Below, piece by piece: positions 7,509 to 27,992 of a stretch of 64,000 nt of DNA (position 1 is the stretch's first letter; each line of letters starts with the position of its first letter). Source of the stretch: Actinomycetota bacterium. Lineage in GTDB: Bacteria > Actinomycetota > Actinomycetes > JBDIAW01. A program made the position numbers and the translations under genes. The notes below the pieces were generated by a model. That model made no database searches and was not told where the DNA came from. It saw only the letters and a program-made list of their open reading frames with translations. The stretch is from the NCBI GenBank assembly GCA_039812585.1, contig JBDIAW010000007.1, positions 1,162 through 65,161 on the forward strand. Reading direction: 5' to 3'.

Positions 7509-7548
7509 CCCCCTGTCGTTGCCCTGCTACTGACCTTGCATACTGAGG

Positions 7549-8832: not shown

Positions 8833-8882
8833 TCAACGAGAGTTTTTCTGCCGTGTTCGATCAAGCATCGGGAGATATCACC

Positions 8883-10541: not shown

Positions 10542-10611
10542 CAAATCAGGCTGACCTCGGGTCACCCGCAATCACTGATACCACCACGTGATCAGCAGAA
10601 CGGGAGTAGCA

Positions 10612-11046
10612 ATGCAGGGGGGACTTGTGCAACTGTTGTTGGTCGAAGATGACCCTGGTGACGTGATGCTCATCCAAGAAGCTTTTGCTGACCATAATCT
10701 GGAGCAGGCCATCGACCACGTCACCGATGGAGAGGCGGCCTTGCAATACCTGCGCCGCGAGGGTCGCTACGCCAATGCTCCCCGCCCCGATCTAGTGCTG
10801 CTCGATCTCAACCTTCCTCGGGTGGATGGCCGGGAGGTGTTGGCCCAGGTTAAATCTGATGAATCGCTGCGCAACATTCCTATCGTGGTGCTGACCACCT
10901 CTGAGGCAGAAGAGGACGTGCTGCGCAGTTACCACCTGCACGCCAACGCTTACGTGACCAAACCGGTGGACTTTGACAAGTTCCTCAACGTGGTGCGAAA
11001 GATTGATGACTTCTTTGTCGGAGTGGCCAAACTCCCCACCCGCTAG
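10612..11046 (+). CDS. single-domain CheY/Rcp1-like response regulator
   Basis: [10 protein letters not shown]...[17 protein letters not shown]...AYVTKP. ATG at 10612 with GGGAG 5 nt upstream. Confidence 0.85.
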
Positions 11047-11115
11047 TGTGGGGCGCGACAGCTCTGAACGGCGAACTGCCGGTGTTCGCTTCCTAGTGTA
11101 AAGGTGGTTTTGTTG

Positions 11116-12297
11116 ATGTCTGCACCCACTGCTTCCCCTGAGGTTGCCCAGCTGTTGCAAGACCCGGTCTTTGCTGCGCATGACCGCGGCAAGATGGAAA
11201 CCACCCTTAAAGCACCTATTCGTGACCGCGACGATCTCTCCCGTGTCTATACCCCAGGAGTAGCGCGAGTATGCGTGGATATTGCCGAAAACCCTGACCA
11301 CGTACGGGATTTCACCCTTAAGGCCAACACGATTGCCGTGGTGAGTGACGGCTCGGCGGTGCTCGGTCTGGGCAACCTAGGTGCGGCTGGCGCGCTTCCG
11401 GTCATGGAGGGCAAGGCCGCCCTGTTCAAACAGTTCGGGGGCATCGACGCGGTGCCGCTGTGCTTGGACACCCAGGACACCGAGGAGATCATCCGCACGG
11501 TACAACTGATTGCTCCGGTCTTTGCTGGTATTAACTTGGAGGACATCTCCTCCCCCCGCTGTTTCGAGGTGGAGCGACGTCTGCGCGAGTTGCTAGATAT
11601 CCCTGTTTTTCACGATGACCAGCACGGCACCGCAATTGTCACCCATGCAGCACTGCTCAACGCGTTGACGGTGGTGGGCAAACGCATCGAGGACGTGCGC
11701 ATTGTGATAGCCGGTGCCGGTGCTGCCGGTTCAGCCATCCTGAACCTGTTGCAGGCGCAAGGGGCATCGGATGTGGTGGTCTGCACGAGTAAGGGCGCGT
11801 TGGTGCAAGGCCGTACCGATGTGCCACCGCATTACCAGGAGATTGCGGCCCGCACCAACCCTCGGCGTATCAGCGGTACTTTGCGTGATGCGGTGCGTGG
11901 AGCTGACGTGTTCATCGGTGTCAGTGGCCCGAACCTGTTGGAGGGCTCCGACATTGCCACCATGAATGCTGATGCCATTGTGTTCGCTATGGCCAACCCC
12001 ACTCCGGAGGTCGACCCAGCAGCTGCCGCTCCTCATGCGGCGGTGATTGCCACCGGGCGCAGTGACTACCCCAATCAGATCAACAATGTGCTCGCTTTCC
12101 CCGGGGTGTTTCGGGGCCTCCTTGATGCCCGTAGCACGACCATCAACAATGAGGTCATCCTTCGGGCTGCCGTGGCCCTATCTCAGGTGATCCCCCAGCA
12201 GGAGTTGCGCGCCGACTACATCATCCCCAGTGTCTTCGACCCTCGCGTGTGCCCTGCCGTTGCTGGAGCAGTCCAAGCAGCCGTTGCCGGACAGTAA
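11116..12297 (+). CDS. NAD(P)-dependent malic enzyme
   Basis: YTPGVARVC...[15 protein letters not shown]...VPLCLD malic enzyme motifs. AAGGTGG RBS before ATG 11116. Confidence 0.85.
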
Positions 12298-12409
12298 GTA
12301 GGGGCTAGGACACCGCCAGCCCGACCGTGGGCACGATTGGTCGCGGCTGTCATACTGAAGCTTCCTGGGGTCACCGATGTGGGCAGTGGTTGTGGACAGG
12401 GGGCACGCT

Positions 12410-12994
12410 ATGGCGGAACCGTTTTTATGGCCACGCCCCGTCAGTGTGTCCCGCCTGACCGGGCAGTTATTGGTGGCCAGCCCTCATCTGCACGATCCCA
12501 ACTTTTCTCACACCGTGGTGTATCTGCTCGACCACTCCACCTCCGGAGCCTTAGGGGTGATCATTAACCGCCCGTCGGTGGTGGAGGTAGGTGCGGTGTT
12601 GTCCGGATGGGCTGACGCCGATCCGACCGGGGTGCTCTACCACGGTGGCCCGGTGAGCCAGAACTGCGCCCTGGGGGTGGCGGTGGCCTGTGCGGCACAG
12701 CCTCCCCGCGGCTGGCAGGGCATCGACGGAAGCTTTGGCCTGGTGGATTTGGATGCTCCGGTGGAGCAGTACTCCCGTCACGTGCGGGGCGTGCGAATTT
12801 TTGCCGGGTATGCGGGCTGGGACCCCGGGCAGTTGGAGGAGGAGTTGAGTGAGGACGCCTGGTTTGTCGTTGATGCCCTGCCTGGCGACCTGCTCACCGC
12901 TCATGCGCACACCCTGTGGCGTGCGGTGTTACGCCGACAAACCAACGACCTGGTCTACCTTTCCACCTACGTCGATGATCCCAGTCTGAATTGA
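12410..12994 (+). CDS. YqgE/AlgH family (UPF0301) protein
   Basis: LTGQLLVASPHLHDPNFSHTVVYLLDHSTSGALGVIINRP. Start chosen at the internal ATG 12410. Confidence 0.7.
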   Translation: MAEPFLWPRPVSVSRLTGQLLVASPHLHDPNFSHTVVYLLDHSTSGALGVIINRPSVVEVGAVLSGWADADPTGVLYHGGPVSQNCALGVAVACAAQPPRGWQGIDGSFGLVDLDAPVEQYSRHVRGVRIFAGYAGWDPGQLEEELSEDAWFVVDALPGDLLTAHAHTLWRAVLRRQTNDLVYLSTYVDDPSLN

Positions 12995-13117
12995 ACTGGC
13001 CTGCAGGCAAACTGTCGCACGGACTGCCAAGCCTCGTTTAGGCTGGTCAGTATGGACGCTGCAGCAATGAGCCTCACCTGTTCTTCGAGCCTGCCTTCGG
13101 GGCCGGGGATTGCCACG

Positions 13118-13369
13118 ATGGACCCGGATACGGACACCTTGACTCGGCCTGAGCAGGAAGAAAACTTCGAGCCCGGTGATCATGAGCGTTTTGCCCACTA
13201 TGTGCGTAAAGGCCAGGACATTCAATCAATGATGTATGGCACGCCGGTGGTGGCGCTGTGCGGGAAAAAATGGGTCCCCAGTCGTGATCCTAAAAGATTC
13301 CCCGTTTGCCCTATGTGCAAAGAGATCTACGCGTCGATGCCTGTGGGTAAGCCCGATCATCAGGACTGA
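13118..13369 (+). CDS. DUF3039 domain protein
   Basis: ERFAHYVRKGQD...ALCGKKWVPSRDPKRFPVCPMCKE matches the conserved actinobacterial DUF3039 pattern. Start at ATG 13118. Confidence 0.7.
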   Translation: MDPDTDTLTRPEQEENFEPGDHERFAHYVRKGQDIQSMMYGTPVVALCGKKWVPSRDPKRFPVCPMCKEIYASMPVGKPDHQD

Positions 13370-13432
13370 ACCTTCGGTGGTGTCACTGACCTCGGGTGTT
13401 TCCCTCCACTCGATGAAAGTGATGCCCCAACC

Positions 13433-15100
13433 ATGGCTGATGACCCGGGTAAAACCGGCGCGGTGGTGGTGAACCAGGATGCGTTCACTGCCTGCCTGCA
13501 GGGTGATTACACCGCGCTGAACCATCTGCTTACTACCCCGCAGCGCTACTTCCCGCCGATCAGTGCCTATCCCAGCCCCACCAGCCTGCAACGAATGGGC
13601 GGGTTGGAGCTGGAGATGCTGCTGATCAACCCGGTAACGGGGGAGTTGGCCGCAGCGGGGCAGCCATTGTGGGAGGACCTCACCCGCCACAACAGCCCGG
13701 AGGCCACCTTCACCAGGGAGGCCTCCACCTATGCCGTGGAGATTAACATTGCGCCTTTTCCCATAGCCGGCGCTGGGTTTGCCCTCCTGCGCCAACGCCT
13801 AGAGGCCGCGTTGGCCACCTTGCGTCGCGTGGCGGCTCGCTACGGGTTGGCCTGTCTGGGGGTCGGCATGGCTCCCTCAACCAGGCTGGAGCAGTTGGGC
13901 CCGCACGCCATCCCTGACGTGGCGCGTTATCACCTGCTCAACGAGGTCCTCATGCGCTACAACGTCAACCGCCCCGTGCGGCTGCAGGGCCCCACCGAGC
14001 AGGTGGATTTCTTAGCTGAGTCGGTGGCCCTGGTGGGGGCGGGGACCAGCGCTCAGTTTCACCTCATGGGGGATTACGACAGCTTCCCGGAGTTGTTCAA
14101 CGCGGCCCAGGCGATCACGGGCCTGATGGTGGGTTTGGCGGCGCACTCCCCGTTTTTTAACGGTCTGGCTTTAGCTCACGAGACGCGACTACTGACGTTT
14201 CAGGCCTTCACCGATACCCGCACCCCGCAGGAGTGTCAGCGAGGAGTCCCGGCACGGGTGGATGTGGGAGCAGGGTGGGTGCGCTCAGCCTTCGAGGCGC
14301 TGACCCGAGGGGTTGCCACCCATCATCCGTTGGTGCCCAATGTGGAGGGGTTGGCTGACTCGGTGCGCCAACTGGCCTTGGGGCAAACTCCCAGCCTGCT
14401 GGCGTTGCGCCGCAGCCAGGGCACCCAATGGGAGCACAATCGCGCCCTGTTCTGCACGACAGGAGCGGACCAGCCGGTGTCGGGAGGGTTTTTACGGGTG
14501 GAGACTCGCGCCATGGCCTCCGGTAGCACCCCTGATGTGTGGGCCAATTGCGTCTTCTCCGCCGGGCTGATGCACAGTTTGGCCAGTGACCCGGTGCCGG
14601 TGGCCGAACAATTCCATTTCGATCATGTGCGGCGCACTGTGAAGGAGGCGATTGCGCAGGGGATGGGCGCGAACGTGTGGTGGCCACAGTTGGGTCAGAT
14701 GCCTCTGCCTCAGGTTGTCACTCAGGTGTGCCTGCCGCTGGCGCGCCAAGGATTGGCCGACTTGCAGGTTTCGCCCAGCCTGGCGCACGCGGCGTTGGAC
14801 ATTATTGAGCAGCGTTGCCGTACGCAGGTCAACGGGGCCAGTTGGAGCTTGCGCGTGGTGGAACAGTTGCAGGCACGAGGGAGCTCCCGCACCGCTGCCT
14901 TGGCCGAGCTCACCCGATTGACCGCGCGGCATCAGGCCAGCTCCACTGCCTCGCCGGTGCACACCTGGCCGTTGCCCACCTCCGGGGTGGTCGCACGGCC
15001 CAAAGTAGGGGGGCGTGGCCCGGTGGTGGGATTGCCTGCGCCCACAGCTCCAAGCCGGGGTGCTGTGGGCTTCCCGGCTGTGGCACACTGGAGGGCATGA
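13433..15100 (+). CDS. glutamate--cysteine ligase family 2 / carboxylate-amine ligase (YbdK-like) with Pro/Ala-rich C-terminal tail
   Basis: GLELEMLLINPVTGE N-terminal GCS2 motif. The long low-complexity C-terminus makes the exact 3' end questionable. Confidence 0.55.
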   Translation: MADDPGKTGAVVVNQDAFTACLQGDYTALNHLLTTPQRYFPPISAYPSPTSLQRMGGLELEMLLINPVTGELAAAGQPLWEDLTRHNSPEATFTREASTYAVEINIAPFPIAGAGFALLRQRLEAALATLRRVAARYGLACLGVGMAPSTRLEQLGPHAIPDVARYHLLNEVLMRYNVNRPVRLQGPTEQVDFLAESVALVGAGTSAQFHLMGDYDSFPELFNAAQAITGLMVGLAAHSPFFNGLALAHETRLLTFQAFTDTRTPQECQRGVPARVDVGAGWVRSAFEALTRGVATHHPLVPNVEGLADSVRQLALGQTPSLLALRRSQGTQWEHNRALFCTTGADQPVSGGFLRVETRAMASGSTPDVWANCVFSAGLMHSLASDPVPVAEQFHFDHVRRTVKEAIAQGMGANVWWPQLGQMPLPQVVTQVCLPLARQGLADLQVSPSLAHAALDIIEQRCRTQVNGASWSLRVVEQLQARGSSRTAALAELTRLTARHQASSTASPVHTWPLPTSGVVARPKVGGRGPVVGLPAPTAPSRGAVGFPAVAHWRA

Positions 15101-15202
15101 GCCAGCTGCACGAGATTATTCCCTGCGCGCGTCGGTAGTTCCATCCACCGACGCGCAGACCTTCCGTGGCTCACGGGAGGTCTTTTTTATGGAAGGGTCG
15201 CT
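15090..15202 (+). promoter_or_regulatory. candidate leader/attenuator upstream of cimA/leuA: 13-codon uORF (MSQLHEIIPCARR) overlapping a 12-bp-stem hairpin, then a short hairpin plus T6 run just before the cimA RBS
   Basis: GGAGGG then ATG at 15097. The uORF stop lies inside the stem ctgcgcgcgtcggt...accgacgcgcag. ccgtggctcacgg+gaggtctttttt is unusual in this GC-rich DNA. Confidence 0.3.
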
Positions 15203-16780
15203 ATGTCCAGCACCACTGTTGACGTGTATGACACCACCCTGCGCGACGGTACGCAGGGGGAAGGGATCAGTTTGTCGGTGGGGGACAAGCTGACCATTGC
15301 CCGGCTGCTCGACGAGCTAGGGGTTGACTTCATCGAGGGAGGGTGGCCGGGGGCCAACCCCAAAGACAGTGAGTTTTTCGCCCGCGCCGCCGAGGAGTTG
15401 ACCCTGCACCATGCCCAACTGGCTGCCTTTGGAGCCACACGTCGCGCTGGTGTCGCAGTGGCCGATGATCCCCAGGTTGCGGCCTTGCTGGAGGCGAACA
15501 CTGCGGTGGTGTGCCTGGTAGCCAAAAGCCACGCCGAACAGGTAGAAGTGGCGCTTCGCACCTCCCTAGAGGAAAACCTCGCGATGATCACCGATACGGT
15601 GAGCTATCTCACCGGCCACGGTCGGAAAGTTTTTGTTGATGCAGAACACTTTTTCGACGGTTATGCGGCACATCCTGACTACGCGTTGCAGGTGGTGCGC
15701 GCGGCGGCGGATGCCGGTGCGCACGTGGTGGTGCTCTGCGACACCAACGGGGGAAGCCTGCCAGAGCAGGTGGGCGCTGCAGTGGCGGCGGTGCACCAGC
15801 TCAGTGGGGCGAATCTGGGCATTCACTGCCACAACGACAGCGGTGTGGCCGTGGCCAACACCCTCGCGGCGGTGCAGGCGGGGGCGATGCACGTACAGGC
15901 AGTGGCCAACGGGTATGGGGAGCGTTGTGGCAATGCGGATTTGTTCACGGTGGTGGCGGCCTTGCAGTTGAAGTTGGGTCGCACTGTGCTGCCTGCAGGC
16001 CGCCTGCAGGATCTGACCCGTATCAGCCATGCGATTGCCGAGGTGGCCAACCGTGCTTTGCCAGCACCGACCCCCTACGTTGGCGCCTCCGCCTTTGCCC
16101 ACAAAGGCGGCCTTCATGCCAGCGCGGTGAAAATCCGCCCCGACCTTTATCAGCACATTGATCCTCGTCAGGTGGGCAACGACACCCGGATGCTGGTCTC
16201 CGAGTTGGCGGGGCGTGCCTCTGTGGAGCTGAAAAGCCGCGAGTTGGGTGTGGACCTCTCTGATCGCCCCGAAGCCCTGACACAGGTGGTGGAGCTAGTC
16301 AAACAGCGTGAGGCAGTTGGCTACAGCTATGAGGCGGCCGATGCCTCATTTGAGTTGTTGTTGCGCGATGTGTTAGCCGGGGCCAAGCAGCGGCCTTTCC
16401 AGGTGGAGTCGTGGCGGGTGCTGGTGGAGCATCGCAGGGCCGGTGACCCAGTGCCCGCAGCAGAGGCCACAGTCAAGGTGCATGCCCAGGGTCAACGCCT
16501 GGTCGCTATCGGTGAGGGCAACGGCCCGGTCAACGCTTTAGATGCCGCCCTACGTCTCGCCTTGGAGCCGATCTATCCACAGTTAACTTCATTGAAGTTG
16601 ACCGACTACAAAGTGCGCATCATCGATACCGGCCAGGGCACCGCCGCAACCACCCGAGTCCTTATCGATACCACCGATGGCAAGACCTCCTGGTCCACCG
16701 TCGGTGTCGGGCAAGACATCGTCGAAGCCTCCTGGCAAGCCTTAGAGGATGCGGTCAGCTACGGGCTGCTGGGGAGTTGA
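15203..16780 (+). CDS. cimA: citramalate synthase / 2-isopropylmalate synthase family (LeuA-dimer domain)
   Basis: VYDTTLRDGTQGEGISLSVGDKL HMGL-like N-terminus with a C-terminal LeuA allosteric-type domain. 525 aa, typical of CimA. Confidence 0.8.
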   Translation: MSSTTVDVYDTTLRDGTQGEGISLSVGDKLTIARLLDELGVDFIEGGWPGANPKDSEFFARAAEELTLHHAQLAAFGATRRAGVAVADDPQVAALLEANTAVVCLVAKSHAEQVEVALRTSLEENLAMITDTVSYLTGHGRKVFVDAEHFFDGYAAHPDYALQVVRAAADAGAHVVVLCDTNGGSLPEQVGAAVAAVHQLSGANLGIHCHNDSGVAVANTLAAVQAGAMHVQAVANGYGERCGNADLFTVVAALQLKLGRTVLPAGRLQDLTRISHAIAEVANRALPAPTPYVGASAFAHKGGLHASAVKIRPDLYQHIDPRQVGNDTRMLVSELAGRASVELKSRELGVDLSDRPEALTQVVELVKQREAVGYSYEAADASFELLLRDVLAGAKQRPFQVESWRVLVEHRRAGDPVPAAEATVKVHAQGQRLVAIGEGNGPVNALDAALRLALEPIYPQLTSLKLTDYKVRIIDTGQGTAATTRVLIDTTDGKTSWSTVGVGQDIVEASWQALEDAVSYGLLGS

Positions 16781-16799
16781 TCGCTGGGTGAGATAGAAG

Positions 16800-19067
16800 C
16801 TAGCGATTAGAACTAATGGATTTCCCAGCTTGAAGCATGAAAGATTCTCGTGGCAAACGAGGCAACCGGATCATCTGAGAGGCACGATAAGGGACAGTTG
16901 CCCCACTGCGGGTAGAGTGCCCAGGTTTTTTCACGACACTGAATTGATGACCTTGCATCAAGTATTTCCTCTGCCCATGAACAGAACCCCATTCTGGTCT
17001 TGGAATAAGCGAAGCTTGCAGAATGACCACGCTATGACCTGGGATGATCACAGTCCCTCCTGGAACAATACCGGTCGGTGTGATCAGTGTTTTGTCGGCA
17101 GTCGTCGTGCATTCCAACGCATAGCTTTTCCACTGTCCTGCAGGCAGCTGAAAAGCAGTCTGCTTTGAGGAGCGATTAAAGATAACTAAGAGGCCATCCC
17201 CATCTCGTGTGGCACGTGGTGTAGTCGGCTGTTCCGTGCAAGCCATGAATGCGCCGAAGCATGAAATATGGGCATCCTGCGCTGTGTTAACGGTCGATCC
17301 GTCAGCTTTGAGCCATACGACATCTGGTGGCCCCCCCTCAAAATGAGGCAATCCTGTAAAATGACCGGGATCTCTTAATGCAGGGTGAGTTTTCCTGAGA
17401 TCAGCTAAGGCACCAAAGAAATGAAGTAGATCAGGATCTGGCACAGGCCATTGATGCCACACTCTGGCGTCATCAATGTCGTAAGGATTATGTAAACCGT
17501 CCTGTGTTTGGCCGCAAATATCGTTTGCTGTGACGAGCGGCATGCCTTTTGAAGTCATCAAAATCGTGAGTAAGCCCAGCGATATTTGTCGATTCACAGA
17601 GACGTCATTGGTGTTGGTGATATCTCTTACACGGTCTGCAAGTGTAGGTCCATCGTGACTACCAATGTATGAAATTACTCCACCTACCTTCCAGCCATGC
17701 GAATCGGAACTTCCAGCAAACCCTTTAATGAATAAATCTAAAGATTTACTGTTAGTAAGCCACCCAATAGAATCTCTCAACCCTGGATCCCACTCTGCAT
17801 ATTTACCTGGCAAACTACCAATTTGCGTTCCTAGGCAATCCCAAGGCTCCCCGCTTAGAAAGAGTCGAGATAACTCGGGATCATGTGCAATGTCATGGAG
17901 GAGTTGACTTGTGCCCTGTTCGTGAGTTTCACCCCCTCGTGTTAGCGCTGCCAGAAGATCGAAACGAAAGCCATCCACACCTAAATCGGCAAGATTGCGC
18001 AACGAGTCCATGATTATTTGGCGGGTCAATGGCGTATCATTTAAGGATGCACCACACCCGGTACAATCCCAATAATGAGGACCTATAGGTCGATACCATC
18101 CATGTGGATCTAAGCCTTTACCGGATGCTGTCAAGCCTTGGTGGTTACCCTCAAAGGTATGATTATAGACAACATCTACGATAATTTCTAGTCCTTGTCG
18201 GTGAAATGCCTCCACCATATCAGCGAATTCTTTTCTAATACCTCCTGGGTAGCCCTGTGTTCCATATCCAGGATCCAAAGCCATAAAGCTCATAGAATTG
18301 TATCCCCATACGTCATCAGGATGAGAGGCATGAACGGGCATGAGTTCTATAGTGGTTACTCCGGCAGCCTGAAAGAAGGGGATCAGGTGAACTAATCCAG
18401 AAAATGTTCTTCTTTGTCCTTCGGGTACATCTGGATGTATTCGTGTAATATGTCCGACATGAACTTCACAGATTATCCGCTGTGAAAGCGGTATTTTTGG
18501 TCTGTTTCCAGTATCCCACTGAAGGGAGTTGTCTGGTACTACCGAAAATGGAACATATCCAAAACTGTCGTAGTTATTAGGGCGAATATCAGCAGTACGA
18601 AAATTTCCACTTCTATCCATATCGTGTCCGTCATAAGTGGCTGCCCGTCCTATTTGCATCTTCTTTGGGTTTGGGTAGGCAATCTCCGACGCATGTGGAT
18701 CTATCAACGCTTTGTGAGGGTTGAACACCTCGCCCATGTAAGGTGCCCAAGGTCCATCAACACGGATGTTGTACTTCGTACCGGGCGGTGTGTCGGGTAT
18801 CTCTCCCGTCCATGGACCTTTGGTGGCAGCACTGCTTAAATCTCTTTGTCTAGATTGTGGTGTGAGAGACCAGAGTTCCTCTCTGCCATTAGGTTTAAGA
18901 ACTGCTATATAAACTTTCCAAGCTTTAGGCGCAAAGACGGTGAAGGTGGTTGCTCCGGTCTCGGGATCATAAGTCGGTCCCTGTCGTTCAGGACTTGGGG
19001 CGGGCCTTGCAGCCCGTACTCTAATGATTGCCTTTTCATAGCTCATGTCATGCATTTTAACATCCAA
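16800..19067 (-). CDS. treX: glycogen debranching enzyme GlgX/TreX (GH13 isoamylase-type)
   Basis: CBM48 N-terminus and GH13 catalytic regions (GFRFDLLA, VDVVYNH). ~48% GC; sits downstream of treY. Confidence 0.85.
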   Translation of the reverse strand: MDVKMHDMSYEKAIIRVRAARPAPSPERQGPTYDPETGATTFTVFAPKAWKVYIAVLKPNGREELWSLTPQSRQRDLSSAATKGPWTGEIPDTPPGTKYNIRVDGPWAPYMGEVFNPHKALIDPHASEIAYPNPKKMQIGRAATYDGHDMDRSGNFRTADIRPNNYDSFGYVPFSVVPDNSLQWDTGNRPKIPLSQRIICEVHVGHITRIHPDVPEGQRRTFSGLVHLIPFFQAAGVTTIELMPVHASHPDDVWGYNSMSFMALDPGYGTQGYPGGIRKEFADMVEAFHRQGLEIIVDVVYNHTFEGNHQGLTASGKGLDPHGWYRPIGPHYWDCTGCGASLNDTPLTRQIIMDSLRNLADLGVDGFRFDLLAALTRGGETHEQGTSQLLHDIAHDPELSRLFLSGEPWDCLGTQIGSLPGKYAEWDPGLRDSIGWLTNSKSLDLFIKGFAGSSDSHGWKVGGVISYIGSHDGPTLADRVRDITNTNDVSVNRQISLGLLTILMTSKGMPLVTANDICGQTQDGLHNPYDIDDARVWHQWPVPDPDLLHFFGALADLRKTHPALRDPGHFTGLPHFEGGPPDVVWLKADGSTVNTAQDAHISCFGAFMACTEQPTTPRATRDGDGLLVIFNRSSKQTAFQLPAGQWKSYALECTTTADKTLITPTGIVPGGTVIIPGHSVVILQASLIPRPEWGSVHGQRKYLMQGHQFSVVKKPGHSTRSGATVPYRASQMIRLPRLPRESFMLQAGKSISSNR

Positions 19068-19551
19068 CCTAACGTTGAGGGTAGGACTTTCAGCAGAAGT
19101 TGGCCGCGCAACACTCAGTAATCATGAGATAGTGGATAGTTAAAAGATTTTGTTGCTCGATAACTTGACAAGAGAATAATTATATTCGAGGTTGAGATTT
19201 GCCGCAATTCATTACATCAATTCAAAATTAATAAACTAGTAGTAAAATAAATTATTACTGGTAGAAAATTATGTGCACTTCTTGCCAAGCATATCATCTG
19301 TATTGTTTCGTAGAAGCTGGAGTTAAAGTTAGCACAAAAAGAGCTTGCAGGCTAATTGAGAACCTACCGAGCTAGTACAACTGCCCGAGGACCCTACCTG
19401 CATGGCATTTTGGTAGTCATTGTCTGAAAAATCGTTCGGTGATGCGAACTACATTGTATGACCAGTTGCTTAAAGAGGAATTGCTCCAATCGGGATTCTC
19501 TAAGGGTAGTATCACTAGGAGCTACTTTAGACGATAGAAAAAAGTTATGAT
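19068..19551. other. 484-bp strongly AT-rich (~30% GC) spacer between treY and treX
   Basis: No ORF of 60 aa or more. Runs such as aattaataaactagtagtaaaataaattattactgg. Possible internal promoter, sRNA or remnant of foreign DNA. Confidence 0.5.
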
Positions 19552-22146
19552 CTATCTCGCTACTTTAGGGTTTAATCGAGGATGAATGCGTGCACAGACT
19601 ACACTCACGTACAATTGGGGTGGAATCACTTGATCCTGCTGCTGAGGTGCACGCACCATTATCGCCACAGGCAGGTCAGCAAGCATGGTAGCTAATTGCG
19701 CGTTACCGCCCTGGTAGACATCTCCGGTTAAGGTATTAATCCATTGACCTGGGGGAAGAGCAATAGTAGCACTATTGAAACCACCAGATTGATTCAAGCC
19801 ATGAGCAAGACGAGTAACCACGGCGATAACTGCCTGATTTCTTCCCTCACGTTTGAAGGCATAAGCATGATCGCTAGTGGTAGGGACCTGCTGGTAGGTG
19901 GAATCTGGGCTAAACGCATCGGGGCATTCTCGACGTAATCGTAAAGCGCTAGAAACTACTAGCATTTTTTGATCGTCAAGATCGTGAGGAGATCTACCTG
20001 CAGTAAGTGTCTGCATTCTGTGATTCAACGCGGCGTAGTTGACCAGTTCGCGATTGTCTGGATCAACACCCATCTGACGGACTACCTCACACCCTTGGTA
20101 TGTGTCCGGCACACCCGGGAATAGGAGTTGCACTGTAACTGCGCCAAGAATGTTTGCGCGAATCGCGTGAGACATCGCGTGATGGTATTGCCGGATAATT
20201 GTACGAACTTCGGTGCTTGCGCAAGCGCCTTCAACTAATTTTCGCACGGCTTCTTCATATTTATCATGTTCGTCATTTCGATCGCTCCAGCGAGTATAAG
20301 ACCCAGCTTCGCGAATAGATTTTTCCATGATAACTATTAAACGTTCGGTGATTTTTTTCAAGCCAGCTGCGTCAAGAACCGTTTGTAGGGGCCACACTGA
20401 CACTAACGTTTGCCAAAACAAATATTTGGTGGTTGCGTCCACCATAGTTTGACGCAATGTCGCTTCTTCCAGCTTACGAATAGTAGCATCCCATCCCTGA
20501 GGATCCTCGGTTGCGACCTGATTAATAGCGCGCAAGTCTCCTGACCGTTTAGTATCATGTGTATTTAATGTGGTCATGGTGGCTGGATATTTCTCTAGTA
20601 CGGTCTGGGCAAAAGCGGTTAATTCATCGGGATTGATCGCAAGTTGATCAGGATCTCCGCCCACCTCTTTCAAGGCAACAAGAAATGTATGGAGATAAAA
20701 TGCTTGATCTTCTTTTGCTTTTGCCATGAGTGGCCCAGCGGCTTGATTAAACCTAGTAGTAAATTCATTCATTATTGGGTCGGAGCTCACCGAAACGAGA
20801 ATGTCGTTCAGTATATGCAAAGCTGTTAAAGCAGACTCATCGTCACTGAGAACACCCTGTGCGTATGAGTAAGCTTTTTCTATGGTCAGTAATGAATCCT
20901 TAGAGGGAATTTGCCCAGGAACGGAGTATGATCTGTAGCATTGCATTCCTATGAGGAGCTGCACCAGCGCTGTCCTAACGCTATCTTCAGGCGCTTCATT
21001 AAGTTGTGGAATATTGTGTGCCAACCTCATGAGACGATGCACTTCAGGGTAAAGAATACTCGTCAGAACATGTATTTTTGCCGCAGTAACTACTTCTGAA
21101 AATTCCTCCGCTTGCTGGGTATATTTGATATACAATTCCCGTAATTTTTCTACACTTTGTGGATCTATAAATAATTTGTCGATTTTTTCGAGGGCTTTGT
21201 AGCCTGTATCCCCAGCAGTTTTCCAATCATCTGGTAATTGTTCATTTCCCTCGAGTATCTTTTCTACTATGACCCATGGTTTTTTCTCTTCCCCCCACAA
21301 TTGGGTCCAATTTTCAGTTAAATCATCCAGTAATTTTTTGGGGTTGGCTACGCCATCAATATGGTCACAACGTAACCCTACAAACACTTTACCTTCGGGA
21401 TCTATGGTATGAAGAATCTCTAACAACGGTGTGACAGTAGCGCGAAATACTTGTGGGTGTTCTACTTGAACACCTATGAGTTCATTGACGTTGAAAAAGC
21501 GTCGGTATCCAGGCCCCTCGCGCCAATCACCGAATCGATAATATTGTGCATCAAGCAAATCTCTGAGCGGTAGATTTTCGGTGCCTGCTTTGATGGGAAA
21601 GGTACGCTCGTCGTCACCATGATACAGTTTTAGTACGGATGAGCCATTACTCAGTCGCTCTACCCGAACAAGCCCCCATTGAATGCAGTCTTCAATAGAG
21701 CTGCCGAGGAACGGGAGGATGATTTTATTTCCCCCTAGCTCCCAGTCGACATCATAAAACTTCGCGCACTCACTTTCGGGACCGTATGTAAGTAATTGCC
21801 ATAGGGTCGGGTTTAATTGAACATCGCGAGGGAACCCTTGATGGTTAGGAACAATATCAATAATAATATGCATCCCGCGCGCCTGAACTTGTGCTGCAAG
21901 GCTGGCTAGCCCCTCCTCGCCACCAAGGTCAGAACTGATGATAGTGGGATTGACTACATTATAACCGTGGGTTGAACCGGGTTCCGCCTGTAAAACGGAA
22001 GATAAATAAAGAGTATCGATACCAAGTTCTTGAAGGTAATCCAGTTGATGTATTAAATCAGCAAAGGTAAACTCTGAACGTAACTGTACACGGTAAGTTG
22101 ACGATGGAACTTGAGTACCAATCTGCATGATGAGAACGCCTTTCAT
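19552..22146 (-). CDS. treY: malto-oligosyltrehalose synthase
   Basis: STYRVQLRSEFTFADLIHQLDYLQELGIDTLYLSS...DIVPNHQG. ~45% GC with AT-rich codon usage. The start may be the Met at 22128. Confidence 0.85.
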   Translation of the reverse strand: MKGVLIMQIGTQVPSSTYRVQLRSEFTFADLIHQLDYLQELGIDTLYLSSVLQAEPGSTHGYNVVNPTIISSDLGGEEGLASLAAQVQARGMHIIIDIVPNHQGFPRDVQLNPTLWQLLTYGPESECAKFYDVDWELGGNKIILPFLGSSIEDCIQWGLVRVERLSNGSSVLKLYHGDDERTFPIKAGTENLPLRDLLDAQYYRFGDWREGPGYRRFFNVNELIGVQVEHPQVFRATVTPLLEILHTIDPEGKVFVGLRCDHIDGVANPKKLLDDLTENWTQLWGEEKKPWVIVEKILEGNEQLPDDWKTAGDTGYKALEKIDKLFIDPQSVEKLRELYIKYTQQAEEFSEVVTAAKIHVLTSILYPEVHRLMRLAHNIPQLNEAPEDSVRTALVQLLIGMQCYRSYSVPGQIPSKDSLLTIEKAYSYAQGVLSDDESALTALHILNDILVSVSSDPIMNEFTTRFNQAAGPLMAKAKEDQAFYLHTFLVALKEVGGDPDQLAINPDELTAFAQTVLEKYPATMTTLNTHDTKRSGDLRAINQVATEDPQGWDATIRKLEEATLRQTMVDATTKYLFWQTLVSVWPLQTVLDAAGLKKITERLIVIMEKSIREAGSYTRWSDRNDEHDKYEEAVRKLVEGACASTEVRTIIRQYHHAMSHAIRANILGAVTVQLLFPGVPDTYQGCEVVRQMGVDPDNRELVNYAALNHRMQTLTAGRSPHDLDDQKMLVVSSALRLRRECPDAFSPDSTYQQVPTTSDHAYAFKREGRNQAVIAVVTRLAHGLNQSGGFNSATIALPPGQWINTLTGDVYQGGNAQLATMLADLPVAIMVRAPQQQDQVIPPQLYVSVVCARIHPRLNPKVAR

Positions 22147-22225
22147 GACGTTTCCTACTTAAACTGCCCCAAGTATGCCCTACATCGGTAGGGAATACTG
22201 CTTAAACGCGCGAAGATGTAGGAAG

Positions 22226-22687
22226 TCAAGAGTTCAGTTCGTAAGGACTGAACTCTTCTACCGTGCGTCGCCTGATCATCGTGCTGCTGACCCCTGGGGT
22301 ATAGCCGAAATACTCCACGGCTGCGCCGAGGGCTTTTAGGCGCTCTGCATCGGCTATCCATCCTGGCTCGTGGGCGCGGTCGTCTCCGGCGAACAGGCAG
22401 TCAAAACCCCAGCGCTGCCAAGCGGCTACTTTGTCGATGGTGGTGTGATCAACCAGCACCACCTCATCGACGTAGCGGAGGGCAGCCAGGATTTCGGCGC
22501 GATCTGCGGCTGTGATCACTGGAGGGCGCTGCTTGAAGAAAATCACTAATTCATCGGTGAGAACTCCCACACGTAGATGCTGACAGCGGGCGCGCGCTTG
22601 ACGCAGCAGGGCTAAGTGGCCCACGTGGAACAGGTCGAAAACTCCCGCAATGTAACCACGCGCATACCTTGGGTCAAGTTGGGACAC
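22226..22687 (-). CDS. glycerol-3-phosphate cytidylyltransferase-like (TagD/TarD family)
   Basis: GVFDLFHVGHLALLRQARA (HxGH nucleotidyltransferase motif). Start taken as GTG 22687; the track ORF runs to 22810 and overlaps the upstream gene. Confidence 0.7.
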   Translation of the reverse strand: MSQLDPRYARGYIAGVFDLFHVGHLALLRQARARCQHLRVGVLTDELVIFFKQRPPVITAADRAEILAALRYVDEVVLVDHTTIDKVAAWQRWGFDCLFAGDDRAHEPGWIADAERLKALGAAVEYFGYTPGVSSTMIRRRTVEEFSPYELNS

Positions 22688-25628
22688 GGTGACACTCTCC
22701 CACAGAAAAGGTTTCCGGGCCGGCAAGCAGGTCCAGAGCGGCGGGCAGAACGCGGGTCCGGCGGATACCCCAGGCGTTGACTTGGCGGCGAATGGCGTCA
22801 ACGAACACATTGCAGATCACCACACACGTACGTTGCGGATCCACACCTGCCAACACGGCGGGAGATTGCACCGTCAAACCATGGCTGAGGGTGCCCCAGC
22901 GGTTCATGTCGTTATCCACCAAAATCTGCACGGGTAAGGGGGAGTGGGTGCTGTTCTCTTGATCCCACAGCTGCCCCGCCCCGAAGGCCACCACCGTCCA
23001 CTCCTGCAAACCTGTCCACGGATGGTGATACCAGCGCAACACCTCGGCATACCCACAGTCAGGATCCAACCACGCCGGGTGGCCCCGATGGTGGCGCAGG
23101 CCACCTCCAGGGCCGCCGTCGGGATCGGCAAAGGTGGCTCCGTACAGCTGGGGCAGCAGCAGGTGTGGCTGCGCCGGAGTAGGCACCTGCAACTGTTCGA
23201 AATCGTGCGTTGTGTGCCACGAACTGAAGTGATGCGCGGGTAACCCTTGGTACTCATAGCTACCGGTGTATTGGGTGAGCACCGCCGCAAGGCCAGTACG
23301 TGCAGCGTCGTAGGTGCGCACCTGCTGTTGCCACTGGGCCAACGGTTGACCAGCAGGCAGTGAGGCGGCCTGCTGGCACACCTGCTCCCACCGCTGTGCG
23401 GAACAATCGAGAAAACCGTGCCGGCGTGGTCCATACCGTTGGGCGAACACTAAACGTTGCAGGTGGCGCAACTGGTCAACATGCTCCTGGTGTGCAGCCT
23501 GGTCGGCGGGCACACCATCCACAGCAGTGATATCAATCCACATCCCCGCGTGGTGGGGTTGCCCAGCGTGCAGATGCTCCAACGCGGTGGTCGTGCTGTC
23601 TCGCAAGCGCAAAGCCCCGCCGAGAAAAAAATGCGGATCGGAGTCCGGGGTCTGCAGCCACAGCCCGGCTGGCCAGACGTTGGCGGGCAGGGCAACCAGA
23701 ACGTCAAAATCAGCTCGAGGCATCACCACGTCCAGGTCATCATCCCAGGGGATGAAGCCATCGTGGCGAAGTGCCCCCAGCAGGCTGCCATACATCACCG
23801 CCCAGCGCAGACCATGGGCGTGACAGACCTGGCCCAAGTGTTGCACCAACTGCAGTTGCACCTGCCACTGCCGCTTACGAATCCAGCTGATACTCGGGTC
23901 TCGGGCCGTACTGGCCCGCAGCAGCGGTAACTGCGGGTCAGTGGGGGTCGCCGCGTCCTGGTAGCGCCGGGCCGTCAGCGCAACCGGGGAGCTGTGCTGC
24001 CACGACCGCATCACCTGGTGGGTGTGATGGGCGCGGTTGGCAGCAACGAACGCGTACTCCTGCTCCAACCATTGCTGCCACTGCTCAGTCAGGCCGTAGC
24101 GGTGCTTCAATCCCTCCAAGCTGACCACCGTGTCGAGGGCGGGATTGAAGAAGTAGCTGTAGTGCAACGCCCGCACCATGATGGAGCCCATCGTCAGGTT
24201 AGGCTGGCAAAACTCCTGGTCAAACCACAGAAACTGCCCGTCGCGGTAAAAGCAGTTGAAGGGGACCAGGTCCAGAAAAGCCTGCTGCAGCACGGTGGTG
24301 CTGTTCCACGCTGCCAGCTGCGGTTGCCCCTGGACTCCCGCCGGATGGGGATCAACGGAGCAGCCCAGGGGCGGGCTGCTGCGCATGATCTGCTCGGCCA
24401 AACCGTCGAAAATGCAGATGAGCTGCCGGCCAACGTCAGCAAACGCGGGGATCGCGGCCAGGTGGCCGGCCAGAGTGGGACCCTCCACGTGAGGTAAGCG
24501 AACGGCAGGCCCGGGCTCCAGCTGGTGATCCAAAACGGTCAAGCCACGCTGGCGCAACGTGGCTGTATGGCTGACCAGCGCCTCGATCGCCGGATGGCCC
24601 GCTGACCACAAAGCACGCTTACGCACCGTGTGGTCGTGGTGCATGGTGGTGATCAGCGCATGCCCCACCTCCCGGTCGCTGGAGATCACCGCGCAGGTAG
24701 GGCTTTCGGCAGGGATCTGCTGACCGGCCAGCACCACAAACCCCTGGGAGAAGAACTGCTGCACCCCATTCTCGCGTAAAGCTGCCCACAGGTGAGCGGG
24801 CTCCGCGACCTGGCCCTGCCGCGTGGGGGAGTAGGTGGACAACCGGGAGAACACCTCCGGCTGCGGCTGGTAACTATCGGTGAGGATCAGCTGAGGCACA
24901 TGGTGATCGGGCAGAGGTTGGTGGACACGGACCTGGGCCAATCCGGCCTGGTGGCACAGTTGCTGAACCTGGGCCAAGCTGCGCTGGGGATGAGCTCCCG
25001 CGTAGTGCTGCATCCCCTCGAAGGCAGCATCGCCACTGCCAGGTTCGGGCAGGCCACACCAACCCGACAACGCAAACCGATTCGGCAACGCCCACAGCAA
25101 CACCCCGTGCGGGGGCAAACTCTCGGCGATGCGCGCCAGCAATTGCACGGTAGCGTGATCGCGGCGTTCGCCAGTGTCAACAAACCACGGCCAGCCATCA
25201 AGCACCACCAGATCCCACTGGCCCTGGTGGTGAGCAGGCAACAACGCAGGCAGATCGGTGGGGCTGACCAGAGTCAGGCTGCTGCCGGCGGGCACAGCCT
25301 GGGCCGGCAGGCGCGCGGTCAAAAAATCCTCACGCGGGCTGCCCAGCGCTACCACACTGACCTGCGTGCGGGCCTGCTGCCCCGATCGGCGCAGCAACGC
25401 CTCAGTCAGCTCCCCGTAGTTAGGGTTGATCTCCAACACTGATGCTGATGGAGGCAGCGGATACCACGCCACCACGGCATCACGCAGGGGGCTCAGCGCC
25501 CGAAAGACCTCCCAGCGGCCATCAGCGGTGATCACCTCGGTGAATCGGTGGGGGTCCAGGCTTGGAGCGTGCTGCTGCAAGGCACGCAGAATGACCTGCT
25601 CTGGCTGCGGCCTGCCCGCACTGCTCAT
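22674..25628 (-). CDS. large multidomain protein with central LicD-family phosphotransferase domain and C-terminal Rossmann-like domain
   Basis: MYGSLLGALRHDGFIPWDDDLDVVMPRADFD is the LicD motif. ATG at 25628 (MSSAGRPQ) overlaps the upstream stop as ATGA. C-terminus has GAGQLWD...ILVDNDMNRWG. Confidence 0.75.
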   Translation of the reverse strand: MSSAGRPQPEQVILRALQQHAPSLDPHRFTEVITADGRWEVFRALSPLRDAVVAWYPLPPSASVLEINPNYGELTEALLRRSGQQARTQVSVVALGSPREDFLTARLPAQAVPAGSSLTLVSPTDLPALLPAHHQGQWDLVVLDGWPWFVDTGERRDHATVQLLARIAESLPPHGVLLWALPNRFALSGWCGLPEPGSGDAAFEGMQHYAGAHPQRSLAQVQQLCHQAGLAQVRVHQPLPDHHVPQLILTDSYQPQPEVFSRLSTYSPTRQGQVAEPAHLWAALRENGVQQFFSQGFVVLAGQQIPAESPTCAVISSDREVGHALITTMHHDHTVRKRALWSAGHPAIEALVSHTATLRQRGLTVLDHQLEPGPAVRLPHVEGPTLAGHLAAIPAFADVGRQLICIFDGLAEQIMRSSPPLGCSVDPHPAGVQGQPQLAAWNSTTVLQQAFLDLVPFNCFYRDGQFLWFDQEFCQPNLTMGSIMVRALHYSYFFNPALDTVVSLEGLKHRYGLTEQWQQWLEQEYAFVAANRAHHTHQVMRSWQHSSPVALTARRYQDAATPTDPQLPLLRASTARDPSISWIRKRQWQVQLQLVQHLGQVCHAHGLRWAVMYGSLLGALRHDGFIPWDDDLDVVMPRADFDVLVALPANVWPAGLWLQTPDSDPHFFLGGALRLRDSTTTALEHLHAGQPHHAGMWIDITAVDGVPADQAAHQEHVDQLRHLQRLVFAQRYGPRRHGFLDCSAQRWEQVCQQAASLPAGQPLAQWQQQVRTYDAARTGLAAVLTQYTGSYEYQGLPAHHFSSWHTTHDFEQLQVPTPAQPHLLLPQLYGATFADPDGGPGGGLRHHRGHPAWLDPDCGYAEVLRWYHHPWTGLQEWTVVAFGAGQLWDQENSTHSPLPVQILVDNDMNRWGTLSHGLTVQSPAVLAGVDPQRTCVVICNVFVDAIRRQVNAWGIRRTRVLPAALDLLAGPETFSVGECHRVPT

Positions 25629-26851
25629 GTGGGCACCCGCAGGGCAATCATGCCCCGGCCCAGGTCGTCGCGCAGATGCAGCCCGTCGAGGAAGGATAAC
25701 TCCAGGCGGGAGTAGGTGCTGCTGATGTGGCGCCACAGGCGGTCGGCAAACTCCGGGTAGACAGCTTTGGCCCCACCGGCCAGCGCGGCGGGGGAGATGA
25801 GGCTGCTCAGCTCGGCCACCATCGAGGCCCACGTATCGCGCACGGCAGCGTGCAGCTGCTCCAGGCAAGCCAGGTGGGCACTGCAGCGATGCTCGGCAAA
25901 GCTGAGGAACGCTCCCGCGCAGTTCATGGTGGACACCGACGCTTCGGTGGAGGTCACCATCGTCTCTAACAGGTGGTAGCGGCCCAGCAACCAGCTGGGA
26001 TGCTCCCCTGGGTGCACGCCGCGAGTCAGCAGCGCACTCACCTGCCCGTGCCAGTCGGGCATCCCCCGGTAAAAGCCCAGGTAGAAGCCCTGCCAGTCGG
26101 CTGTGACCAATTGCTCCAAGCCGGCCTGGCACGTGCCCATCGAGACCAGATCGAAAAAGGCGAACGTGCCGCCCTCGCGCACCCCCAAGCGGTGCAGGTA
26201 GGCACTGTAATGCTGACGCAAGCCTGCGGCGTCCTGCAAAATCTGATCGCGATGCGCAAAGGCGCGCTGCAGGGCCAGCTGAGCTCCAGCCGCATCCAAC
26301 GCCGTGCGCGGGGCATCTGGGCTGCTGGTGGACACCCCCGCAAGGCCAGCGGGCAGGCGCTCGGCCAGCAGGTCATCCACCGTGCCGGCAAAGGGGGAGT
26401 GGCACAGGGCAGCTAGATCCTGGTCGCTGCGCAGGCTGGCCTTGCTGATGAGGCTTCGGGAGATGCGTAAATAGCGCGAGGCTGGCAGATTGTGCCCGCC
26501 GGGCAAGTGGCGCAACGACTCATAGAGCTGGCGCAGCAGCAGGCCATCGCGAGCGGCGAAAAGAACCAGGTGAGGTTGGCGCAGCATCATCTGCTGGGCC
26601 AACCACACGGTGAAAACGCCCAGCAGCGGCCCGAGAATGAGCTGGCCCACCTGCGTCATCGAACTCAACCGGGGGCGGGGGTCCTCCGGCGGCCCACCCA
26701 ATCGCTGGGCGTGCTCGATCACTGCCCGGGCCACGTGGTGCTCCAGGGGGGATCGGGCCAGGTGCTCCAAGTCCGCCCAGGGGTGTGCACTGTCCTGCTG
26801 TGGTGAGATCTCCGGCAGCCTGGGGGTGTCAGTGGGGGTGGGCCAGGGCAT
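25625..26851 (-). CDS. hypothetical protein carrying an uncharacterised domain paralogous to the C-terminal half of 30247..32478
   Basis: LVLFAARDGLLLRQLYE and GTFAFFDLVSMGTCQAGLEQL align with LYVAARDGFILQRLITD and DTIAFCDFVSAGTSQLALEDVL in the other protein. Confidence 0.5.
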   Translation of the reverse strand: MPWPTPTDTPRLPEISPQQDSAHPWADLEHLARSPLEHHVARAVIEHAQRLGGPPEDPRPRLSSMTQVGQLILGPLLGVFTVWLAQQMMLRQPHLVLFAARDGLLLRQLYESLRHLPGGHNLPASRYLRISRSLISKASLRSDQDLAALCHSPFAGTVDDLLAERLPAGLAGVSTSSPDAPRTALDAAGAQLALQRAFAHRDQILQDAAGLRQHYSAYLHRLGVREGGTFAFFDLVSMGTCQAGLEQLVTADWQGFYLGFYRGMPDWHGQVSALLTRGVHPGEHPSWLLGRYHLLETMVTSTEASVSTMNCAGAFLSFAEHRCSAHLACLEQLHAAVRDTWASMVAELSSLISPAALAGGAKAVYPEFADRLWRHISSTYSRLELSFLDGLHLRDDLGRGMIALRVPT

Positions 26852-27992
26852 AGAGAACCGTCTCCGCAGGGTAGATGCTGTAGTGGCGCAGGTAGAGCGT
26901 GTAATCGGGGACCAGCGAGGTGATGAGTTCCGGGATGATCACCACGTCCTCCGGGCGGTGGTAAACCGAGATCGCCAAGCTGGGACGGTGAGTGGTGATG
27001 GTCGAACGCGCCCCCCACAGCGCTTCGTACTCTGCGCCCTCAATGTCCATCTTGATGAAGCTGACCGCCCGGCCCTGCAGCCAGGAGTCCAGGTCGGTCA
27101 CCTCAATACTGTCTGCGGCTTGGGCGGCGATGGTCGAGCTGCCGTTGCTGGTAGCAAGAAAGCCCAACCGGGTTTGGTGGCTCCACAACCCCAGGGGTAC
27201 CAGCGTGCACGCCGGGCGCCGCCCCGCCTGGACCAGCTGGTGGGCGCGGGCGAGGTTGGCCGGATCGGGCTCGAAGGCGTAAAACTGCCCTCGGTGCTCA
27301 GGGCCGTAGTGGCGTTGCATGACCTCAGCAAAGGCTTGGGTGGTCTCCAGCTCCAACGCCCCGGCATCCACCACCACCTCATCGGCGCGCAGGTGCACCA
27401 AGCCTGGTTCCAGGTATTGCACCGACAGATCCGCGCTGCCGCCCAGAATGTGCTCCGGGCTGACCCCGTGGGCTAGCAGCAGTGTGCGCATCTGGTCGGC
27501 ATACATCTCCGAGCCCAACAGGAAGCGCACCGGGCGGCCTTGATGGTAGGCGGCAACGACCTCCAGAGGATGCTCCACGGGCAGATCCTTGGTGGCGCTC
27601 AGTGCGCTGTTGCGGTCGCAGAAACTATGCACCTGCACACCCAACTGTGACTGCACAATCCAGCGCAGCGCATCCCCCTCCCCCCCAGCCCCATAGATCA
27701 CCAGCTGGCAGGAAGGCGCCAGAGCGGCGAGTTGATCGAGCAAACGCTGCCAGCTAAAGGGCTCCTTCAACTGGACCAGACCTTGATCGACCAGATCCAT
27801 CATGCACATCGGGTCGTGGGTGTGGTTCATCTGGAGTCGGGCAGCCAGGATGGTGCGAGAGTGCTCATCGGCCAACCGGTCAGCTACCGCCTCGGCCTGT
27901 GCCGTAGTGGGCACCGGGCGCTGCACTGGCAGGCCCAACGGTGCCGGGTCGCAGGCCAGGCTGGGTGGGGCTGGGTGCAGATTCAGGCTCAT
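26829..27992 (-). CDS. FkbM-family methyltransferase with N-terminal Rossmann-like domain
   Basis: FIKMDIEGAEYEAL FkbM motif. ATG at 27992 forms an ATGA overlap with the TagF-like stop. N-terminal QLVIYGAGGEGD. Confidence 0.7.
   Translation of the reverse strand: MSLNLHPAPPSLACDPAPLGLPVQRPVPTTAQAEAVADRLADEHSRTILAARLQMNHTHDPMCMMDLVDQGLVQLKEPFSWQRLLDQLAALAPSCQLVIYGAGGEGDALRWIVQSQLGVQVHSFCDRNSALSATKDLPVEHPLEVVAAYHQGRPVRFLLGSEMYADQMRTLLLAHGVSPEHILGGSADLSVQYLEPGLVHLRADEVVVDAGALELETTQAFAEVMQRHYGPEHRGQFYAFEPDPANLARAHQLVQAGRRPACTLVPLGLWSHQTRLGFLATSNGSSTIAAQAADSIEVTDLDSWLQGRAVSFIKMDIEGAEYEALWGARSTITTHRPSLAISVYHRPEDVVIIPELITSLVPDYTLYLRHYSIYPAETVLYALAHPH

Follow-up and report, generated by a model that had tools for sequence, protein, structure and literature searches.

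The locus

Investigating a stretch of 64,000 nucleotides from an Actinomycetota bacterium (GenBank assembly GCA_039812585.1, contig JBDIAW010000007.1; this whole stretch is hereafter called the window, and positions are counted from its first letter), we found two adjacent minus-strand genes of alpha-glucan metabolism at 16800-22146, both belonging to glycoside hydrolase family 13 (GH13): treY, encoding a malto-oligosyltrehalose synthase, and a gene for a divergent debranching enzyme of the GlgX/TreX type. An initial annotation, made from the letters alone, had named these two open reading frames (ORFs) treY (19552-22146, 864 amino acids) and treX (16800-19067, 755 amino acids), and both the positions and the assignments hold: the former is a member of the TreY equivalog family TIGR02401, the latter has the GlgX fold and the GH13 motifs. 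Together with the AT-rich spacer between them, the genes form an island of low GC (guanine plus cytosine) content between the native citramalate synthase gene cimA and a cell-wall glycopolymer cluster (Table 1). We consider it probable that this island was acquired horizontally by its high-GC actinomycetotal host from a donor of about 45% GC which has not been sampled up to now; its foreign origin is well supported, and from this we infer the transfer itself.

Table 1 Features of the island and of its borders (window positions)
Feature	Position	Strand	Characteristics
cimA, native citramalate synthase, left flank, convergent with the island	15203-16780	+	TIGR00977, 656.7 bits; GC 62.5%, GC3 0.72
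C-terminal tail of the debranching ORF, about 65-70 amino acids, without counterpart in homologues	16800-17018	-	alignments stop at about 17019
Core of the divergent GlgX/TreX-type (GH13, isoamylase-like) debranching gene	17019-19055	-	CBM_48 and Alpha-amylase (Pfam); TIGR02100 below threshold
Tract differing between two assemblies of one sample	18663-19202	.	5'-terminal part of the debranching gene together with 147 bp of spacer
AT-rich non-coding spacer, 496 bp	19056-19551	-	38.1% GC; no ORF, no Rfam match
treY, malto-oligosyltrehalose synthase, 864 amino acids	19552-22146	-	TIGR02401
Intergenic stretch upstream of treY, right edge of the island, 79 bp	22147-22225	-	ribosome-binding site; GC rise from 40% to 58%
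Native cytidylyltransferase gene, right flank, last gene of the wall-glycopolymer cluster, co-directional with treY	22226-22687	-	PF01467; GC3 0.66

Composition and borders

The island contains 45.9% GC, compared to 62.5% in the remainder of the window (the background of about 67% assumed initially was too high); the mean of the whole window is 61.1%, and in a 1-kb profile values of 59-69% flank a trough at 17-22 kb. Measured against windows of equal size (5347 bp) taken elsewhere in the stretch, whose GC content averages 62.2 ± 2.8% and never falls below 56.4%, it has a z score of -5.8. The treX-like ORF accounts for 47.8%, treY for 45.7% and the segment between the two ORFs as first called (19068-19551) for 38.4% GC. 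Both island genes have a GC content at third codon positions (GC3) of 0.40 versus 0.66-0.82 in the neighbouring genes, and the claim of a foreign, low-GC composition therefore stands. Resolved to 200 bp, the profile shows GC decreasing from 60% to 49% at the stop of cimA (16780) and, on the other side, increasing from 40% to 58% at the stop of the cytidylyltransferase gene (22226); at both edges the step is complete within about 200 bp and coincides with the stop of the flanking gene. A composition unlike that of the host and sharp borders, two of the traits by which an acquired genomic island is recognised, are both present.

The shift is not confined to silent positions. The GC content of treY at codon positions 1/2/3 is 0.587/0.386/0.399 versus 0.72/0.46/0.83 in treY of Kribbella, and its product consists to 21% of Phe, Tyr, Met, Ile, Asn and Lys (FYMINK) and to 24% of Gly, Ala, Arg and Pro (GARP), the corresponding values in 12 actinobacterial TreYs being 9-14% and 29-37%. 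As first and second positions and the amino acids moved alongside the third positions, the gene points to a long stay in an AT-rich genome rather than to recent third-position drift.

Assembly support and allelic variation

An explanation of the island as a low-GC fragment from a different organism, fused to a high-GC contig during assembly, is extremely improbable. Two Logan contigs of run SRR10090775 match the window at an identity of at least 99.9%: contig _2772, which extends over 5203-18662, contains host DNA with cimA and, continuous with it, 1863 bp of the island; contig _3710, extending over 18728-32146, links 3.4 kb of island sequence to 10 kb of host sequence. Because these independently assembled contigs cross both junctions, a chimera is very unlikely, and mis-assembly, which the initial annotation had named as a possible objection with regard to the spacer, was not borne out. 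An artefact would find some support in the sample, which seems to be mixed with two haplotypes visible, and in the break of the Logan assembly within the island, where 65 bp (18663-18727) inside the debranching gene are uncovered; but the debranching ORF runs colinear with its GlgX homologues across this gap, and two independent false joins, both at intergenic points, would be required.

The second haplotype is seen in contig _3710, whose 16 mismatches to the window all fall within 18814-19202; 14 of them lie in codons 12-85 of the debranching gene, 11 being non-synonymous and 3 synonymous. The pattern is suggestive of a second haplotype or of a recombination tract with a divergence of about 6%, evolving near-neutrally, and hints at other carriers of the island in the sampled community. 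A diversity-generating retroelement and a deaminase were considered as the source of the mismatches and rejected, since the changes go in both directions and are not limited to adenines. The same species, recognised by an identical DUF3039 protein with the same neighbours, is also found on short contigs of two sibling runs (SRR10090776 and SRR10090778), and population data for the island may therefore exist.

The malto-oligosyltrehalose synthase

Judged by its family and motifs, the product of treY is predicted to be a catalytically intact malto-oligosyltrehalose synthase (EC 5.4.99.15). It reaches 676 bits against the equivalog model TIGR02401 (cut-off 498.65), with residues 14-831 spanning profile positions 1-837/838. 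Along its full length it can be aligned to the malto-oligosyltrehalose synthase of Arthrobacter (6lcv), and the motifs of GH13 regions I-IV are kept, DIVPNH, GLRCDHIDG, VEKILEGNE and THDTKRS pairing with DIVPNH, GLRVDHPDG, VEKIIEGDE and THDTKRS of the Arthrobacter enzyme. A ribosome-binding site (AGGA) is placed 6 nt ahead of the ATG, and the final 32 or so amino acids reach past the ends of the homologues. The Asp, Glu and Asp residues of these motifs we take to be the catalytic ones, as in GH13 enzymes generally.

Within its family, the protein stands apart. It is 37-41% identical to 12 named actinobacterial TreYs, which share 46-74% with one another (median 54%), and in a neighbour-joining tree rooted with a TreY of the Chthoniobacterales it forms a long branch sister to all sampled actinobacterial TreYs. 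Among 5.8 billion protein clusters no TreY other than itself exceeded 42% identity, and a scan of GTDB genomes with the protein returned only one match, from Chthoniobacterales, at 30%. From the 192 columns conserved to at least 95% in its 120 best hits it retains 82%, the other sequences keeping at least 94%; it should be noted that reference sets consisting of best hits, used here and for the debranching enzyme below, inflate the apparent conservation.

The debranching enzyme

The start of the debranching gene was corrected to the ATG at 19055, because a product of 751 amino acids is recorded in NCBI and in Logan, and its ORF ends 19 bp from the stop of the convergent cimA. The C-terminal tail is predicted to be disordered (predicted local distance difference test, pLDDT, of about 30); its GC content of 48% still assigns it to the island. 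Against the GlgX equivalog model TIGR02100, the NCBIfam model that it matches best, the protein obtains 368.6 bits, well short of the cut-off of 640.9 and with its best-matching stretch confined to residues 28-481; the TreZ model TIGR02402 gives 71.4 bits (cut-off 538.8).

The architecture is nevertheless that of the GlgX/TreX enzymes, with a CBM48 N-domain, a catalytic (beta/alpha)8 barrel and an isoamylase-type C-domain; the latter aligns to residues 507-677 of GlgX from Streptomyces venezuelae (7u39), although PF21331, present in most homologues, was not detected. The protein is colinear with this GlgX, with TreX from Sulfolobus solfataricus (2vnc), with GlgX from Escherichia coli (2wsk) and, over residues 12-697, with TreX of Kribbella. 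The motifs DVVYNHT, VDGFRFDL, GEPWD and GSHDG are invariant in it and in 40 homologues, so that the four conserved GH13 regions and the catalytic Asp/Glu/Asp are in place. An AlphaFold (AF2) model computed from an alignment of 41 sequences has a predicted template modelling score (pTM) of 0.78, and its best Foldseek matches in the PDB are the GlgX of S. venezuelae, the TreX of S. solfataricus, the GlgX of E. coli and isoamylases (template modelling score, TM, 0.72-0.82); aligned to GlgX/TreX, the model covers 724-752 alignment columns at target-normalised scores (TMt) of 0.78-0.82. No TreZ occurs among the top 50 structural matches.

The differences to the three crystallised enzymes are as clear: identity to them is 27-31%, and the window protein lacks a segment behind region IV and carries the extra disordered tail of about 65 residues. 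This segment, about 35 amino acids long and conserved in homologues (SYxxKHNEANGE...SWNxGxEG), is deleted; elsewhere, GPTLSFRGIDN is replaced by GLTASGKGLDP and GNNNAY by DGLHNPY. Compared to 120 homologues from several phyla, the protein keeps only 63% of the 208 columns conserved to at least 95% (the others keep at least 91%). Where conservation is at least 99% (114 columns), 28 are changed in it. Its best match other than itself reaches 36% identity in the 5.8 billion clusters and 42% among 1.84 billion representatives searched without word filter. The absence of a self-hit does not stem from a pseudogene annotation, an explanation we rejected in favour of a database artefact: the 90% cluster of the 751-residue protein is represented by an unrelated JGI peptide of 39 amino acids. 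From its sequence, the enzyme appears strongly diverged around the active-site loops with the catalytic residues kept.

Gene order, the absent treZ and the fate of the pathway

The roles of TreX, TreY and TreZ in the formation of trehalose from glycogen have been reviewed (PMC11046441). In the present case, the debranching enzyme would trim the alpha-1,6 branches of a glycogen-like glucan and supply linear chains, whose reducing-end alpha-1,4 bond TreY would convert to an alpha,alpha-1,1 bond; this division of labour between the two enzymes we infer from their families. To release free trehalose, TreZ or another alpha-amylase encoded elsewhere would still be needed. As stated in the initial annotation, the window is devoid of treZ: when two TreZ proteins (from Kribbella and from a JGI metagenome) served as tblastn queries, nothing but weak matches to paralogous GH13 sequences was obtained, inside the treX-like gene (E about 1e-9) and treY, and Pfam scans of the 38 other ORFs of the window returned no further GH13, trehalose or glycogen gene. 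On the strength of the same comparison, a degraded treZ, whether in the spacer or in other parts of the window, was rejected as well.

With the actinobacterial treXYZ operon, as found next to the nearest TreY relatives (in Kribbella deserti and on a JGI metagenome contig), the island has in common that a member of the TreY equivalog family stands beside a GlgX/TreX-type gene, both of GH13, and that an identical chemistry is predicted, with debranching followed by isomerisation of the reducing-end bond. It differs, however, in several respects: the operon consists of overlapping genes in the order treX-treY-treZ, whereas the island has treY, 496 bp of spacer and treX, neither tightly coupled nor followed by treZ; its genes have about 46% GC compared to 67-71% in the operon; TreY and TreX are about 40% and 32% identical to known members, and the debranching enzyme remains below the cut-off of its family. 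The proposed trehalose-from-glucan module is consequently incomplete as encoded, and its debranching partner is atypical.

Two other readings of the pair start from these facts. The genes could be the decaying remains of a treXYZ-type cluster, foreign or native, which lost treZ, leaving a dead pathway in which the debranching gene and perhaps treY drift towards pseudogenes, their reading frames being uninterrupted only by chance. We regard such decay as unlikely, yet much of the above is in its favour: apart from the absent treZ, the low GlgX score, the conserved columns lost (to a lesser degree also in TreY), the deleted segment and the overrun of both ORFs past the ends of their homologues, the alleles in codons 12-85 show an almost neutral ratio, and the AF2 model is of low confidence near residues 406-484. 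What speaks against it is that the ORFs remained intact over 864 and 751 codons at 46% GC, where about one nonsense hit would be expected for each 1% of neutral change, that every catalytic motif is kept in both proteins, and that treY scores above its equivalog cut-off. The counts of conserved columns, moreover, suffer from the inflation mentioned, and treZ may be located elsewhere in the genome.

Alternatively, the GlgX-like enzyme may have taken over the release of trehalose, or acquired another specificity or glucan, rendering the two genes a self-sufficient route. The debranching gene lies downstream of treY, the position of treZ in the relatives, treZ itself is not found in the window, and many changes and the deletion are concentrated in loops that follow the catalytic Glu and region IV, with the catalytic residues retained. 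We nonetheless give this proposal little credit. In sequence and model the protein is GlgX/TreX-like (368.6 bits for TIGR02100 versus 71.4 for TIGR02402, and not a single TreZ in the structural matches mentioned), it retains the motifs WGYN, GFRFDL and EPWD of the alpha-1,6 type, and the near-neutral alleles of its N-terminal part bear no sign of strong selection. If true, it would mean a new GH13 subgroup and a two-gene way to trehalose that originated in an unsampled lineage of low GC.

The spacer and expression of the island

The segment between the two genes had been described as free of ORFs, 484 bp long and of about 30% GC. The first part of the description is correct, the longest ORF on either strand being 34 amino acids, for which reason a small protein was rejected too; the length becomes 496 bp with the corrected start, and the GC content amounts to 38%, values near 30% being reached only locally (32% in the lowest 200-bp window, 23% in the lowest 100 bp). 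Of the special elements envisaged, a small RNA or a recombination scar, no trace was obtained. A small RNA, like a riboswitch, was rejected on the lack of any Rfam match at E ≤ 1 over 16000-23000 and on a folding no more stable than that of shuffled sequence (z = +0.47), and the spacer has neither a repeat partner nor, by tblastn, any similarity to TreZ.

Two terminator-like hairpins (19449-19434, 19367-19347) and one promoter-like site (19297-19268) were located on the minus strand. As far as can be judged from such motifs, the terminator of treY together with the promoter and 5' leader of the debranching gene is most likely contained in the spacer. In the donor it would then have been an ordinary intergenic region, rich in AT and parting two transcription units, rather than a distinct element, and its GC content, 8-10 points below the adjacent coding DNA, fits an ordinary intergenic region. 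As for the internal promoter suggested initially, a promoter-like match does exist, but all these sites are weak matches to consensus, and 13 promoter-like sites compare to 8.7 expected in DNA this rich in AT.

In Actinobacteria, AT-rich acquired DNA is bound by Lsr2 and CgpS, the latter preferring sharp GC drops near promoters (PMC6584129, PMC7002338, 10.1101/751156). The GC drop of the island is the kind of target bound by silencers of the Lsr2 type, and the island may well be silenced, with expression that is probably low unless counter-silenced. The resemblance to silenced islands lies in the drop of about 16 points, lowest in the intergenic region containing the putative promoter; the difference lies in the cargo, which comprises metabolic genes and not prophage or specialised-metabolite genes.

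Origin of the island

At 46% GC, nonsense hits are expected at a rate of about 1.15 in treY and 0.9 in the treX-like gene for each 1% of neutral divergence. Both ORFs being intact in spite of this, selection must have kept them open, and the large divergence of the two proteins is thus likely to have built up while the genes were in use, presumably in the genome of the donor. The timing of the transfer can be approached by means of a sister lineage known only from Logan, whose transketolase is 80% identical to that of the host (63-68% being found to many actinobacterial orders). Its 38-kb contig (SRR9691016_1401) is syntenic with the window from tkt to the DUF179 gene and continues for another 23.9 kb; in the window, the end of treY is reached 9.2 kb beyond DUF179. 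As no full-length TreY above 42% identity was recorded despite this contig, the sister lineage appears to lack the island. The recent acquisition proposed initially therefore fits in so far as it is placed after the split from the nearest relative, but not as a transfer from a sampled lineage: the public collections searched contain no full-length TreY or GlgX-like protein above 42% identity, and a donor clade, which a homology search had been expected to reveal, cannot be named from best hits of 37-42%, those of TreY belonging to high-GC Actinobacteria.

Several observations weigh against a foreign origin, or against its being read too confidently. The absence of the island from the sister lineage is derived from protein searches reporting the best 120 hits, and the region downstream of cimA was not seen in that lineage. 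Hallmarks of mobility are wanting: there is no tRNA gene in the 64 kb, no integrase or insertion sequence, no mobility ORF inside the island and no direct or inverted repeat flanking it beyond chance, so that integration scars had to be discarded as well. The closest TreYs belong to the phylum of the host itself, and no donor comes with them. A histidine kinase gene of the window (8883-10541), syntenic and apparently native, has 49% GC and a GC3 of 0.48, which demonstrates that AT-rich DNA is not automatically foreign in this genome. The near-neutral tract weakens confidence in constraint on the N-terminal CBM48 part of the debranching enzyme, and with its sub-threshold score, 37% of conserved columns changed, a deletion of about 35 residues and alleles at 11:3, the GlgX-like gene may be non-functional. 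The weak promoter and terminator matches in the spacer belong on the same side of the balance. A scan of JGI metagenomes with CimA yielded 80 loci at 61-67% identity, none with the upstream GCS2 or DUF3039 genes, and is uninformative with respect to an empty site.

It could be argued from some of these points that the genes are native, inherited vertically in a deep-branching actinobacterial lineage, and that they became AT-rich and evolved fast in place, as apparently happened to the histidine kinase gene. That kinase has 55% GC in the sister lineage and is 54% identical to its counterpart there, with 65-80% for its neighbours; all of the closest TreYs come from Actinobacteria, and the protein of the island is about equidistant from them just as the host transketolase is from those of other orders (63-68%); and mobility genes and repeats are absent. 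We hold vertical inheritance to be improbable all the same. First and second codon positions and the amino acids are shifted as much as GC3, which needs far longer than the time since the split from the sister lineage; the GC steps fall exactly at the gene ends, the gene order is non-canonical, no full-length orthologue is recorded from the sister lineage although its syntenic contig is 23.9 kb longer, and at 45.9% GC the island lies far below the range of the other, equal-sized windows (minimum 56.4%). Horizontal acquisition is the origin we favour.

Neighbouring genes

In the 79 bp upstream of treY, an 8-bp inverted repeat (CCTACATC...GATGTAGG) was noted. At the site of the flanking cytidylyltransferase gene, Logan contig _3710 calls a gene of 153 amino acids downstream of LicD. 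The cluster to which it belongs (22226-34431), of teichoic-acid-like cell-wall glycopolymer type, is co-directional with and directly upstream of treY and comprises, besides this cytidylyltransferase, a LicD protein of about 1000 amino acids, an FkbM methyltransferase, an IspD/TarI-like cytidylyltransferase, an epimerase/reductase and two proteins of about 750 amino acids without Pfam domain. Within it, at 30-33 kb, GC drops to 50-55%, giving a third patch of lower GC in the window, the second being the histidine kinase gene.

Further along the window, an 881-residue protein (34465-37110, minus strand) combines G8 and CEMIP-type beta-helix domains. This architecture is better known from eukaryotic hyaluronidase-like proteins. 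An apiosidase-like gene (PF13204; 37288-38502, minus strand) is split into two ORFs by a frameshift, a stop or a sequencing error: 37960-38502 corresponds to profile positions 1-185, and 37288-37944 to positions 195-318 followed by a collagen-binding-like domain. A carotenoid cluster at 45705-54148 contains a MerR/B12-binding regulator (LitR/CarH-like), a fusion of a NUDIX domain with a polyprenyl synthetase, two oxidases resembling phytoene desaturases, a phytoene synthase and a P450.

Significance

In most respects the locus represents routine biology: a compositional island, an incomplete version of a well-known pathway and a spacer without detectable special element. Its meaning lies in the origin and the divergence of its genes. 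Glucan/trehalose genes would have passed into a poorly sampled actinobacterial lineage from a donor that is not represented among about 15 billion public proteins, and both GH13 enzymes occupy long, unexplored branches of their families. The debranching enzyme, whose substrate-side loops have been rebuilt, would be a reasonable candidate for an altered chain-length or bond specificity.

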